Shown in pieces: positions 27,883 to 58,107 of a DNA stretch of 64,000 nucleotides (position 1 is the stretch's first letter; every line of letters starts with the position of its first letter). The stretch comes from Eledone cirrhosa (Eukaryota): assembly GCA_964016885.1 (NCBI GenBank), contig OZ024740.1, forward strand, positions 336,288,001 through 336,352,000. The letters are read 5' to 3'. The position numbers were made by a program, and so were the translations under genes. The notes under the pieces are model-generated. The model worked only from the letters and a program-made list of their open reading frames with translations, did not search any database and was not told the DNA's origin.

Positions 27883-28014
27883 TCCTTTGAAGTTCCGATG
27901 AGCCGCTCTGTTTTTTAAATATGTTAATTATTTTCAACTGAACCAGATCAATTATGATATATAGTCATCTGATCTAGAAATATTATATGGAGTAGCGAAA
28001 CAATTGTAAACGGA
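27883..28014 (+). ncRNA. Type I hammerhead with CCGAUGA core and ~95 nt stem II
   Basis: gtt-CCGATGA-gccgctct...ggagtagc-GAAAC-aatt-GTA-aac, with an internal agatca/tgatct hairpin. Confidence 0.75.
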
Positions 28015-28329
28015 CATTATTATTATTAATATAATTATTATTATTCTCTACATTCCTTACATCAAACTAAAATATGTTGACAATCTTTTAATAATGTATT
28101 CCTTGTGAAATTTGTGGTCTTGTTTTGCTTAACTAATGAATATTTCCAACTCTGCGCACCTAACTTCTGCATGAACCCAGCCACCTAGCTGCTTTCTACT
28201 GCATATTGCTTCGGCTTCTAACTAATTCACCAATCTCTCTTCTCCTCTCCTATCTCCATCTCTCGCTTTAAGATTGGTTACTCTTGAACTGTGTATATAT
28301 ATATATATATATATATATATATATATATG

Positions 28330-28460
28330 TCGGGTCACTCTTGAGCGCTACTGGTAACATGTAACCTAGTACAACCTCTCGCATGGGCTAGTCGCCGGCG
28401 ACTAAACGGGCAACCCCACCAAGTTTGTCAGGGTGTCCAAAATCACCCTCCTCACCAAGT
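28330..28460 (+). mobile_element. 5' fragment, partly inverted, of the RTE-derived non-autonomous family
   Basis: gctactggtaacatgta...gactaaac matches the reverse complement of 29180-29253. Confidence 0.6.
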
Positions 28461-28660
28461 TTACTTATATACATATACATACATACAAACATACATACAT
28501 ATATATACACACACACACTTTTGGTTTAACATCTGCTTATATATATATATATATATATATATATATATATATATATATATATATATATATATATATATAT
28601 ATTATATACATATATACATACATACATACATACATATATACATACATACATATACATATA

Positions 28661-29253
28661 TGGTGGTTGCCAACTCGTTTTCGAGTACGGCCACTACTTT
28701 ATATCCATGTAGGAGAACCCCTGCCGATGCGCTGAACGAGTGTGACCTTTTAGTCCAGCCAGCGACTTGAAAACTCTGGTACAAACACTACACTTGTGAC
28801 AATTATTGACACAGTGCTAGGCCCATGGTACCATGTGACGACATGTGCAGAGAGATCTCCAGATATAAAGCAATGCCTGTGCCGTGAAGCTTTTATAGTG
28901 AGCAAAGGCACTGCACAAATCCAGTCCCACTCTCTTAACCAAGATGATATTTACCAAAAAGAAGAACAAGTCAACATCATTGGATACCATCAGGGTTGCA
29001 GGTGTTATATCAGAGTTTTCCTTCTCCTAGAATTCTGCCTTGACAAAGGCAAAGGGGTCATCTCTCCCGGTGATTTTGGATGGCCATTGACTCTTAAGAG
29101 CTTCTTTACCCTTTGACAGATTTTGTTTTTAGTCCTGCAGGATGTCCAAAGTCACCCTCCTCACCAAGAAATCTTGGTGGGGTTGCCAGTTTAGTCGCCA
29201 ACGACCTGACCATGTGACAGGTTATACTGGGATACATGTTACCAGTAGCACCA
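28661..29253 (-). mobile_element. RTE-derived non-autonomous (bipartite/SINE-like) element
   Basis: Highly similar to 58157-58755. The 3' part encodes a C2H2-like RTE terminus; flanked by (TACA)n/(TA)n. Confidence 0.75.
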
Positions 29254-29343
29254 TATACATACATACATACATACATACATACATACATACATACATACAT
29301 ACATACATACATACATACATACATACATACATACATACATACA

Positions 29344-30010
29344 TACATGATGATGGCTGCCATCTCGTTATCGAGTATGACCATTGCACGATATATCATT
29401 ATTAATAATTATTAATTAATTCTATCGTGCAATGCCTGTGCGTGAAGATATTTTTTAAAGTGAGAAAAGACTGTGCACCGAGCCAATCCCACTCTCTGAG
29501 CGACAGTAGCTATAACCGAAAAGAAGAAAAGATCAACACCATCGGTAACTACTGATTCGCAGGTTTTATATCGGAGTTATCCCAGTTTCGTGAGTTGCCT
29601 TCTCCTAGAAGAATGCCCTGACATGGCGGAAGAAATCATAAGAGTCAACGGCCATCCAAAAGAATGTAAATTTGTATATAGACATGTACCGCGCGGTTAA
29701 ACCACTGGGAGTGAAGGACCCCTAGCCTTTGTCAGGGCATTCTTCTAGGAGAAGGCAACTCAGGAAACTGGGATAACTCCGATATAAAACCTACGGCTCA
29801 GTAGTTACCGATGATGTTGATCTTTTCTTCTTTTCGGGTTATAGCTACTGTCGCTCAGAGAGTGGGATTGGCTCGGTGCACAGTCTTTCCTCACTTTAAA
29901 AAATATCTTCACGCACAGGCATTGCACGATAGAATTAATTAATAATTATAAATAATGATATATCGTGCAATGGCCATACTCGATAACGAGGGGGCAGCCA
30001 TCATCATGTA
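29344..30010. repeat. Tail-out fold-back of a relative of the 28661-29253 family (arms 29344-29622 / 29730-30010)
   Basis: ~280 bp inverted arms with (TACA)n on the left and (TGTA)n on the right. Confidence 0.85.
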
Positions 30011-30049
30011 TGTATGTATGTATGTATATATGTATATATATATATATAT

Positions 30050-30402
30050 AAGTATATATTACACAAAGAGAAGTGTGTTACACAGTGAGATGTGTGTAAA
30101 GAATTATTACAAGTGATTTTACCGTTACTGTATAGGGAACAATATCTACAGGTTAGCAATTAAATAGAAAAAACCAATTCAGAATCAAATCTCTGGATTA
30201 GAGTTTTAAATCACAAACCTTATAACTATATAAGGTTTGTGATTTAAAACTCTAATCGAGAGATTTGATTCTGAATTGGTTTTTCTATTTAATTGCTAAC
30301 TTGTAGATATTGTTCCCTATACAGTAACGGTAAAATCACTTGTAATAATTCTTTACACACATCTCACTGTGTAAGACACTTTTCTTTGTGTAATATATAC
30401 TT
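30050..30402. repeat. Near-perfect palindrome with ~175 bp arms and a 4-nt loop (30225-30228)
   Basis: ...aaaccttata-acta-tataaggttt... with only a few arm mismatches. Confidence 0.9.
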
Positions 30403-55309: not shown

Positions 55310-55426
55310 CGCATGCTCCGAAGATCTGACTGGTTATAATTCTGTATTGGCGATCGAGTGACGCAAAATTAGGCGGATAGCGATCTCTAGACATACCAGT
55401 TCAGTGAAACAAATGTAAGCTATGTG
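55310..55426 (+). ncRNA. Type I hammerhead with CCGAAGA core and ~80 nt stem II
   Basis: cgcatgct-CCGAAGA-t-ctgactgg...ccagttcag-t-GAAAC-aaat-GTA-agctatgtg. Predicted cleavage after 55417. Confidence 0.75.
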
Positions 55427-55646
55427 ATTAAAAACTTTTTTGTATAGCAAACCATGTAAACCTTCTTTCCTGATTTATTATTACTCCAAGTGTTTACAAC
55501 ATAGGAATTACAGCATACCCGCAGCATCACTATGAAAACGCCTTGTTGAGTCAAACCAAGCCAAGCGTTAATATCATCCACTACCTGGAATACCATAACT
55601 GGACTTCACCTAAGTGGACTGCATTTAACTATTATTTGTTAATCCG

Positions 55647-56063
55647 TATATATATATATATATATATATATATATATATATATATATATATATATATATA
55701 TATACTATATATATATATATATACTATATATATATACTATATATATATACTATATATATATATATACTATATATATATACTATATATATATATACTATAT
55801 ATATATATATATATATATACTATATATATATACTATATATATATATATACTATATATATATATATATATATATATACTATATATATATATATATATATAT
55901 ATATATATATATAGTAATAATAATAAATATATACTATATATATATAGTAATAATAATAAATATATACTATATATATATAGTAATAATAATAAATATATAC
56001 TATATATATATAGTAATAATAATAAATATATACTATATATATATATATAGTAATAATAATAAA
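55647..56063. repeat. C-interrupted (TA)n followed by five ~31-37 bp units agtaataataataaat(atatac)(ta)n
   Basis: Direct inspection. Confidence 0.9.
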
Positions 56064-56280
56064 TTTCAAGACTAAAATCCAAAGAGGGCTCGATAAGGAT
56101 AAATATATATCAAATATATAAGAACCGTAGAGCAAATATTTATTAAAATAAAAGATTAAAGTTTAAACAAAGAACCGCTGCTTTCACCCTGAACGGGATC
56201 TTCTGAAACTAACAAAGTCAATCTGTGAACGCAGAAGTGAATATTTCAAAAAACGTTGGATATTATAATAATAATAATAA

Positions 56281-56468
56281 TAATTGTTTCTACTTTTGGC
56301 ACAAGGCCAGCAATTACCCTAGTACATTACTGGTACTTTATTTTATCGACCCCGTAAGGATGAAAGGCAAAGTTAACCTCGGCGGGATTTGAACTCAGAC
56401 CGTAAAGGGACGTAACTATGCTGGAAAGCATGGCGTCCGACTCTCTACCGATACTGCCAATCCTCCAC
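56281..56468 (-). mobile_element. Family-A SINE
   Basis: Nearly identical to 35028-35212. Confidence 0.85.
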
Positions 56469-56511
56469 TTTTATAATAATAATAATAATAATAATAATAA
56501 TAATAATACAC

Positions 56512-57522
56512 ATTTCAGAAGTCCCATTTACTGCTGAAATGGAAAACACAGAAAAAGCAAAGCTGGTAAAAGTAATTGCAAAGAAAGAACTGCTACAGAA
56601 ACTGGCTAAGAAATGGCAAGAAAAGCCTCTGTATGGAAAATACCCAGAACGAGCTAACAATCCTGATGTTGACAAAACTTTAACCCATCAGTGGTTGGCA
56701 TCCTCTGGACTGAAATCGGAGACTGAAGGACTGATTATATCAGCACAAGATCAGTGTCTGCCAACCAAAAATTACCAAGACAACATAATAAAAAATGGAT
56801 GCAGCCCAGTATGCCGTGTATGTAAAAAACAACCAGAGACCATTGACCATATAATTTCAATGTGCAGTCCTATAGCTCCAACCGAATACCTAAACAGGCA
56901 TGACAGAGCTGCACAATACATACATTGGATAATGTGTAAGCATTTTGACCTGCCCCATCAAAAGAATTGGTGGGAGCATCAACCACCTCCAAAAATTGAA
57001 AAAGATCACATCTCAATCTTGTGGAACTTTAGCATCTAAACAGACCGAAAAATAGATGCAAATAGACCTGATATAATATTGAAGGACTTTAAAAAGAGGG
57101 TATGCCTGCTAATTGATATGTCCGTTCCAATAGACAAGAATGTATCTATAAAAACATTTGAAAAATTGAGCAAGTATAAGGACCTGGAGATAGAAATTGG
57201 AAAAATGTGGAAATTGAGAACTAAAACAATACCAGTGGTTGTAGGCGCTCTAGGAATGATACCTAAGGGGTCTAATGATTACTTATCGCAAATCCCAGGA
57301 AACCCGCGTATAGGAGAAATACAAAAGATAGTACTAATGGGAACTGCCCATATACTAAGGAAGATTCTGTCAATATAAGTACATCACAAGTCTAAACACT
57401 AAAGATGCATGTGTGAGTATGTATGTTCTTTCTTGAACATGGCGGACCTTGTTGTCTCTTGGGGTCACTGGTTGTGACTTGGTGATAACTCGTATGAACA
57501 TAAAGCAAGATAAATGCAGCTG
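56512..57522 (+). mobile_element. 5'-truncated copy of the R4/Dong-like element inside (TAA)n
   Basis: Near-identical to the reverse complement of 13604-14615. Nonsense TAA at 57037; (TAA)n on both sides. Confidence 0.93.
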
Positions 57523-58028
57523 TAATAATAATAATAATAATAATAATAATAATAATAATAATAATAATAGGACGTTTTGTTATGTCTTCATTACGTTTAT
57601 TGAGTAGTGACGCGCGTTTCGCTATTGATCAGCTCAGGATTCGATCTGTATCGATCTAGCCCGACTCTGGAATCGGACCTCTGGTGTGGTAATGAAGACA
57701 TAATAAATCGCCCTTGTATTATTATTATTACACTCTGCTTAGTTCTACACCTCTTTACAGACTGGAAACTACGCATCGAATGGTCACTCGGGTGACTCTA
57801 CAGTAACTCCACGTTACACGTTACACCCCCTATATATATATATATATATATATATATATATATATATATATATATATATATATATATATATATATATGTA
57901 TATATATATATGTATATATATATATATATATGTATATATATATATGTGTATATATATATATATATATATATATATATATATATATATATATATATATAAA
58001 TCAGTGATGCATTGGAACTCAATTTATT

Positions 58029-58107
58029 GTGTTACAATTGTTTCCCCGGCGAACAGCTCCGTGTGTGTGGATCTACCTGACTCTAGACTCGCAGGTTCCT
58101 CGGACAC
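58029..58107 (-). ncRNA. Type I hammerhead with CCGAGGA core and extended stem II
   Basis: gtgt-CCGAGGA-a-cctgcga...tcgccggg-GAAAC-aatt-GTA-acac-AATAAA, between TA tracts. Confidence 0.78.

Follow-up and report, generated by a model that had tools for sequence, protein, structure and literature searches.

U4 is one of the nearly invariant letters of the hammerhead ribozyme core. In a stretch of 64,000 nucleotides from Eledone cirrhosa (GenBank assembly GCA_964016885.1, contig OZ024740.1, positions 336,288,001 to 336,352,000 of the forward strand; hereafter the window), several hammerhead motifs carry a C at this position (C4), and two of them follow the open reading frames (ORFs) of Penelope-like elements (PLEs). 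This raises the question of whether such motifs are chance matches, decayed copies or an inherited variant of the ribozyme and what, in the last case, the variant may still do. As predicted from sequence, hammerhead motifs with C4 are a genuine feature of the window. On balance, we lean towards the view that they form slow, assisted ribozymes at the 3' ends of Hydra-type PLEs.

C4 hammerhead motifs in the window

A preliminary description of this DNA had reported a CCGANGA core with C4 in five sequence contexts, a mirror of one of them and a stem II of about 40-95 nucleotides (nt) in four of the five. All of this is borne out (Table 1): the mirror is exact, and stem II measures 95, 38, 81 and 52 nt in A, D, B and F, and 14 nt in the fifth site, E. 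Pairing of stems I, II and III and an NUH triplet are predicted at all five sites, each of which has C at position 4 and matches the canonical sequence at the remaining positions of the C3-U4-G5-A6-N7-G8-A9 core. The 3' part of the core (G12-A13-A14-A15.1 and U16.1-H17) is kept in four of them, the exception being the site at 34059 (D), which has U13 and thus lacks A13. A, B and F have a bulge in stem I, and two of these, A and F, a palindromic stem III. Beyond the motif, the five contexts share no similarity, as judged from a blastn comparison of nine flanking regions that gave no cross-hits. The window additionally contains four independent U4 hammerheads, none of which had been listed before. 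Their stem II never exceeds 31 nt, whereas it reaches at least 38 nt in four of the five C4 sites.

The descriptor behind these counts comprised stems I, II and III and the NUH triplet, and its GAAA box was relaxed to G[AT]AA after the site at 34059 had been viewed. Within the 64-kb window, it returned seven matches with C4 (five independent, one mirror and one weak), three with U4 and none with A4 or G4, as compared with a mean of 0.2-0.3 matches per letter and a maximum of two in 60 block shuffles. The weak C4 match (26414, score 8) was dropped because it lies antisense to an ORF; with it, the CCGANGA sequences at 29808, 32265 and 45115 and a CTGATGA at 19265 were discarded as lacking the partner half or stem I or as weak antisense-to-ORF matches. 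No hammerhead family appeared among the 150 Rfam matches listed for the window out of 154, and Rfam 15 also gave no hammerhead match in six comparison loci (L006, L007, L011, L034, L035 and L063) that each contain a canonical Hydra-type hammerhead.

Site D stands apart from the other four. As G12-U13-A14 is found both in the site and in its inverted partial copy (within 34255-34431), the change from A13 to U would be older than the insertion. The motif is probably a defective hammerhead, although a dead template or yet another variant of the core is also conceivable.

Table 1. Hammerhead motifs and Penelope-like elements of the window (window coordinates; HH, hammerhead; cuts are predicted)
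Feature	Position	Strand	Description
HH A	27883..28014	+	C4; core CCGAUGA 27895-27901; stem II 95 nt; GAAAC-AAUU-GUA with palindromic stem III; cut after 28008
Site D, HH-like	33986..34067	-	C4; CCGAGGA at 34059; stem II 38 nt; weak fold; stem I 8 bp; GUC at 33994; G12-U13-A14 (34014-34011(-)) replacing GAAA
Site D, inverted partial copy	34255-34495
HH E	44210..44244	+	C4; CCGAAGA at 44213; stem II short, 14 nt; stem III minimal (GAAA-A-UUA); no linked ORF
HH B (youngest)	55309..55427	+	C4; CCGAAGA 55318-55324; stem II hairpin 81 nt (55325-55405); GAAAC-AAAU-GUA; cut after 55417; stem I 3+6 bp with U bulge
HH B, mirror	50226..50344	-	exact copy in inverted arm; core at 50335
HH F	58029..58107	-	C4; CCGAGGA at 58103; stem II 52 nt; GAAAC-AAUU-GUA; cut after 58033; short fragment flanked by TA-rich repeats
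Canonical HH	21882..21920	-	U4; core 21915; stem II 12 nt
Canonical HH	34634..34697	-	U4; core 34684; stem II 21 nt
Canonical HH	35724..35789	+	U4; core 35732; stem II 31 nt
HH of element C	30919	-	U3-A8/U4; short stem; region 30889-30925
HH of element C, mirror	32601	+	region 32595-32637
Element A	24575..28297	+	near full-length, decayed Hydra-type PLE
Element A, ORF	24875-27403	+	frameshifted; RWK, DKT, reverse transcriptase, CxCx5C, GIY-YIG-like, CxxC, CxH
Element A, inverted partial 3' copy	24575-24769
Element A, direct repeat	24769-24859, matching 28214-28297
Element A, inserted short interspersed repeat	~27750-27872
Element B	50178..55640		two 5'-truncated inverted copies, Hydra-type; arms 100% and 99.95% identical; (TA)n flanks
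Element B, open frame	52712-54541	+
Element B, open frame	51106-52935	-
Element B, internal microsatellite	~54800-54950
Element C	30827..32693	-	Hydra-type ORF fragment 31293-32162, followed by U3-A8/U4 short-stem HH

Relatives of element B and the fold of stem II

Variation was followed in the youngest family, B, for which contigs of four runs (X2, X6, X8 and X10) with at least 80% likeness were aligned on positions 54960-55500 and differences were listed from 5% of contig depth. X2, a single DNA run that may stem from the window's own species or sample, contributed 476 contigs with a depth of ~40,000 over the core, a depth not to be equated with copy number. In this run, neither U at 55319 (position 4) nor any other change at the 13 core positions is listed at 5% or more, under a likeness filter that would leave U4 subfamilies at greater distance undetected. 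The other runs yielded three, two and two contigs, respectively, and the one 151-nt contig (X10, depth 2) that keeps C4 is too thin a basis for cross-species conservation. Nearly all close relatives of element B therefore have C4, which, in this family, likely constitutes an inherited form rather than the outcome of decay. The earlier proposal that U4C is a lineage feature holds to this extent, and it gains from the enrichment over other genomes reported below. It does not apply to the lineage as a whole, since a third Hydra-type element in the window (C) has U4.

The differences that do occur in X2 include three in spots that tolerate change: N7 turns from A to T in 12% of the depth, H17 from GUA to GUC in 5%, and loop III into the palindrome AATT in 5%. 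At the base of stem II, U10.1-U11.1 is replaced by U-A (60%) or A-U (29%). Variation within stem II avoids the predicted pairs. According to the fold of the window copy, eleven of its 13 variable positions lie outside the pairs; of the other two, one retains its pair as U-G and one breaks a pair. This amounts to an enrichment in the unpaired positions (33 of 81) with a p value of 6e-4, or 0.003 if the two end positions are left aside. The apical loop of the 81-nt insert has four variable positions, at frequencies of 22-61%, and a contact that depends on the sequence of this loop is accordingly less likely; positions 55335-55339 in the 8-nt bulge of the same stem have no listed variant. The kept helices fit a role in shape or simple selection for staying folded.

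Only for the 81-nt insert is the description of the stem II insertion as structured supported by folding energy (z -2.3, with 3 of 200 shuffles equally good), whereas the inserts of A (95 nt), F (52 nt) and D (38 nt) fold no better than shuffled sequences, with z-scores of -0.1, +0.9 and +0.7. The free minimum-energy fold corresponds to the hammerhead junction for B and E and comes near it for A, while different folds are favoured by F and D, and the z-scores of the whole motifs are not significant. As a side observation, the starting points of the inverted partial copies of A (24769 versus 27949) and D (34039 versus 34255) precede the predicted cut by 59 and 45 nt, respectively, and fall within the long stem II, which may reflect chance or a pause at the hairpin.

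Host elements, other genomes and known hammerheads

By their motifs, elements A, B and C are Hydra-type PLEs. This clade is marked by a C-terminal endonuclease without a CCHH finger and by RWK, DKT, CxCx5C, CxxC and CxH motifs, whereas Naiads have an N-terminal endonuclease with CxC and DKA motifs and lack a canonical hammerhead (Craig et al., 2021, PMC8557442). In the ORFs of A, B and C, the reverse transcriptase (RT) precedes a C-terminal GIY-YIG-like domain, detected by Pfam as a weak match in the last fragment of element A (E 0.012). The GIY-YIG-like core of all three elements lacks the cysteine pair and, hence, the CCHH finger, and all three share the CxCx5C linker as well as CxxC and CxH around a conserved E and N. 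Element A additionally contains RRIRWKAF (RWK) and SDKTKN (DKT rather than DKA); B and C are truncated downstream of those motifs. The previously described link of two C4 sites, including the youngest, to ORFs is therefore upheld for A and B, where the hammerhead lies ~500-780 nt after the stop codon, but given their domain order, their Hydra motifs and, in A, DKT, these ORFs are of the Hydra type and not Naiad-like. Both arms of element B hold the microsatellite and the hammerhead, indicating that ORF and hammerhead moved as a single unit, and the 91-nt direct repeat between the 5' and 3' ends of element A, combined with its inverted partial 3' copy, represents the usual pseudo-LTR (pseudo-long terminal repeat) layout. 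TA-rich microsatellites abut A, B, C, D and F, which fits (TA)n insertion, and the elements end 35-290 nt past the predicted cut sites.

Some details of these elements deserve separate mention. The right copy of element B has ~165 nt of extra tail (55478-55640), as opposed to the 30-40 nt described for PLEs; the idea that this tail is the start of a next ORF was given up, as neither tblastn nor an N-terminal profile produced a match. The core of element C reads UUGAGAA, a U3-A8 covariant that is known from Schistosoma PLEs and absent from the listed published Hydra hammerheads. A TAGATAA, the first match behind element A, fits the relaxed U3-A8 pattern by chance and was rejected, the true site being hammerhead A.

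For comparison, we used Hydra-type sequences from five bacterial genome assemblies, presumably host DNA (101 partly overlapping loci, 307 kb). Several such assemblies contain animal-type PLEs with hammerheads (loci L005-L064; 53 protein matches in G003 alone). At 18 of 23 distinct endonuclease ends in this set, a hammerhead was found. Position 4 was always U in these 18, stem II spanned 12-24 nt, and the distance from the CxH motif was 108-241 nt, as opposed to the greater distance from the stop codon in A and B; the remaining five ends, three of them with less than 300 nt of sequence, gave none. Distinct matches scoring at least 11 over the 101 loci numbered 31 with U4, three with C4 and two with A4. 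Two of the C4 and both A4 matches were dropped as chance-like, leaving a single C4 counted as real. The C4:U4 ratio is therefore 5:4 in the window versus 1:31 in the comparison set (Fisher p 0.0009, an approximate value as copies are related). A search pattern for C4 matched 89 times in the five assemblies, versus 184 times for its reversed control. A scan of viral contigs found no relatives, and a metagenome scan gave four loci without a hammerhead match. In a quick tree of the C-terminal region, built solely from database homologues, A groups with the U4-bearing C (support of 91 in the Shimodaira-Hasegawa-like approximate likelihood ratio test, SH-aLRT) and B lies nearby, all on long branches, so that C4 does not emerge as the mark of a single clade.

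The C4 motifs resemble Hydra-clade hammerheads (PMC8557442) in their type I topology, their 3' position on the sense strand, the short, near-palindromic stem III, the frequently unpaired or U-U base of stem II, the (TA)n target and the associated protein motifs. However, all 26 Hydra rows in File S2 of that study, which cover 25 families including Hydra-1_oBim from Octopus bimaculoides, read CUGA and have, by our own count, a stem II of at most ~26 nt, as opposed to C4 and up to 95 nt here; two of 27 Hydra families are without a listed hammerhead. While a canonical hammerhead near the 3' end is reported as general in the clade, A and B combine C4 with a long stem II, and C has the U3-A8 core. 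The minimal hammerheads of metazoan PLEs, for which low intrinsic activity has been proposed, share with our sites the location in the pseudo-LTR and the palindromic stem III, a feature of dimer-type PLE hammerheads, as well as the U3-A8 covariant seen in element C (Cervera and de la Pena, 2014, PMC4209133). They differ in their consensus CUGANGAH with a helix II of up to 7-8 bp, versus C4 and a longer stem II at most sites here, and no C4 core was found in those parts of the paper's main text and supplement that were searched. PLE hammerheads are generally described as slow and dimer-type (PMC4209133, PMC6765202), and that of the Poseidon PLE cuts only with protein (Frangieh, 2024, PMC11167929).

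The same core substitution is known from a viroid U4C variant that Perreault et al. (2011, PMC3088659), citing Ambros and Flores (1998), describe as much slower in vitro yet sufficient in vivo; according to the same source, the A6-N7 phosphate is contacted by U4. That case concerns a variant of an RNA pathogen rather than the state of a multi-copy genomic family, and the passages of PMC3088659 that treat it mention no long stem II. Long stems II, in turn, occur in PLE-X1_sMoe (~54 nt) and PLE-X1_sTam from spike mosses, which are flagged as non-canonical but have retained U4 and are members of the unrelated Chlamys group (PMC8557442). Naiads are likewise PLEs with a (TA)n bias that occur in cephalopods, and some contain 'HHR half cores' (HHR, hammerhead ribozyme) with halves 35-50 nt apart (PMC8557442), but they differ from the elements described here, which have a C-terminal endonuclease and DKT. 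In the literature searched, neither C4 cores in PLEs or in cephalopods nor C4 combined with a long stem II were reported, although Lunse et al. (2017) and figures or supplements beyond that search may hold some. Since each ingredient, i.e. the PLE hammerhead, U4C and the long stem II, has a precedent, we regard the C4 motifs as a variant and not as a new kind of system.

The window itself is AT-rich animal repeat DNA (37% G+C) with several non-LTR and Penelope-like fragments. A long interspersed nuclear element (LINE) ORF within it has its best named relative in Argonauta hians (61% identity), which makes an octopod host likely, and the short interspersed repeat inserted in element A is one that we take to be an octopus-genome repeat. 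A 590-nt repeat present twice (28662-29251 and 58158-58740, 94% identical) adjoins site F. Further fold-back insertions lie next to TA microsatellites at 29349-30005, 30050-30402, 22203-22382 and 44136-44203; no hammerhead was found inside these four, the last of which adjoins site E.

Readings of the C4 motifs and their implications

The reading we favour, and hold to be somewhat probable, is that the C4 motifs form hammerhead-shaped RNA at the 3' ends of Hydra-type elements and act as slow, assisted ribozymes whose long stem II remains paired with itself. Such an RNA would likely still cut itself after GUA, albeit slowly and probably only with the help of the element's protein or of a second copy. 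C4 would lower the cleavage rate, as in the viroid variant, and the long stem II would be a self-folding insertion that is kept paired so that the three-way junction can still form. Given that the insertions extend past the predicted cut, they may have been copied from uncut or re-joined RNA, in which case a slow cut would be affordable. This interpretation is supported by the enrichment of C4 over shuffled sequences and over the A4 and G4 controls. In its favour are also the pattern of changes in X2, which spare the core and mostly the pairs of stem II, the hammerhead junction as the free minimum-energy fold of B, the palindromic stem III of A and F, the viroid precedent and the Poseidon hammerhead, which needs protein and whose cleavage is dispensable for insertion in vitro. 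Several observations weigh against it. The absence of core changes in X2 is not significant by itself (0 of 17 variants, one of them a change at 4%, in 13 of 119 positions; p 0.12), and at least two X2 contigs, among the loose-end rows listed, read CTGATGA after 55318, which implies that U4 relatives exist. In stem II of B, no two-sided compensatory change (covariation) was seen in X2, and A>C at 55393 (83%), which is more frequent than any other variant in the predicted pairs, disrupts a pair at a helix end. Moreover, the inserts of A, D and F lack a folding advantage, and four of the five C4 families (A, D, E and F) were each seen once. In the comparison set, the one C4 counted as real occurs once, in a family whose copies otherwise have U4 (L049), and the best-looking C4 pattern sites in the five assemblies lack stem I, U16.1 or a good stem II, adding further defective C4 sites.

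It is also conceivable that the motif no longer cuts and that the junction with its long stem II is maintained for its structure, as a signal for binding the RT or for placing the start of copying, for example. Conserved helices with variable loops in B, the U13 in both copies of site D and the extension of insertions beyond the cut site would fit this idea, as does the finding that cleavage is dispensable for Poseidon insertion in vitro (PMC11167929). We nevertheless consider it unlikely, because G5, G8, G12, A13, A14 and the NUH triplet are intact in four unrelated families and because the N7 and H17 variants are those tolerated by a working core, whereas a dead core would be expected to drift there too. 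Unlikely to a similar degree is compensation, in which new tertiary contacts between the long stem II and stem I restore a rate close to the canonical one; the preliminary description had suggested that the long stem II may provide tertiary contacts or a platform to which a protein or the RT binds. The association of C4 with a long stem II, set against the shorter U4 stems of the window, the bulged stem I of A, B and F and the invariant stretch in the stem II bulge of B speak in its favour. Yet, C4 is coupled with a stem II of 14 nt in site E, which, like the variable apical loop of B, makes a required loop contact less likely. The five inserts also have no sequence in common, and high-frequency variation is found in both the apical and the internal loops of B.

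A slightly smaller chance still falls to neutral drift or decay, whereby C4 arose in a few source elements with an unimportant ribozyme and spread, the single-copy sites being mutated U4 copies. Such an origin would agree with the lone C4 copy amid U4 copies in another assembly, the second core defect of D and the grouping of A with C instead of B in the quick tree. It is harder to reconcile with the presence in 64 kb of five independent sites with C4 as opposed to none with A4 or G4, with the skew relative to the comparison set and with the structure-preserving variation in B; furthermore, C4 gives rise to a CpG and should therefore be prone to reversion (CpG observed/expected across the window, 0.74). 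That the sites are mere chance matches in AT-rich repeat DNA appears very improbable. The descriptor was admittedly loose and adjusted after viewing, the relaxed U3-A8 pattern gave several evident chance matches, and whole-motif folding is unremarkable, but five independent matches face a null mean of 0.2, the sites occupy the location of Hydra hammerheads at the 3' end of PLE ORFs, and family B shows constraint. For A, B and F, chance is already largely refuted.

The role of the ribozyme in PLEs was left open by the 2021 and 2024 studies (PMC8557442, PMC11167929), and a young multi-copy family with C4 and a conserved 81-nt hairpin offers a natural test of how much catalysis these elements need from it. 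It is tempting to speculate, if doubtful, that a fast-evolving octopod branch of Hydra-type elements has fixed a class of C4 hammerheads whose stem II of 50-95 nt serves as a switch or docking site, with the element's protein triggering cleavage at the right step. If so, this class would be missed by descriptors built on CUGANGA and a short stem II, searches of this kind would undercount the hammerheads of cephalopods, in whose genomes the C4 class could be abundant, and its existence could explain some of the PLE families recorded as lacking a hammerhead.

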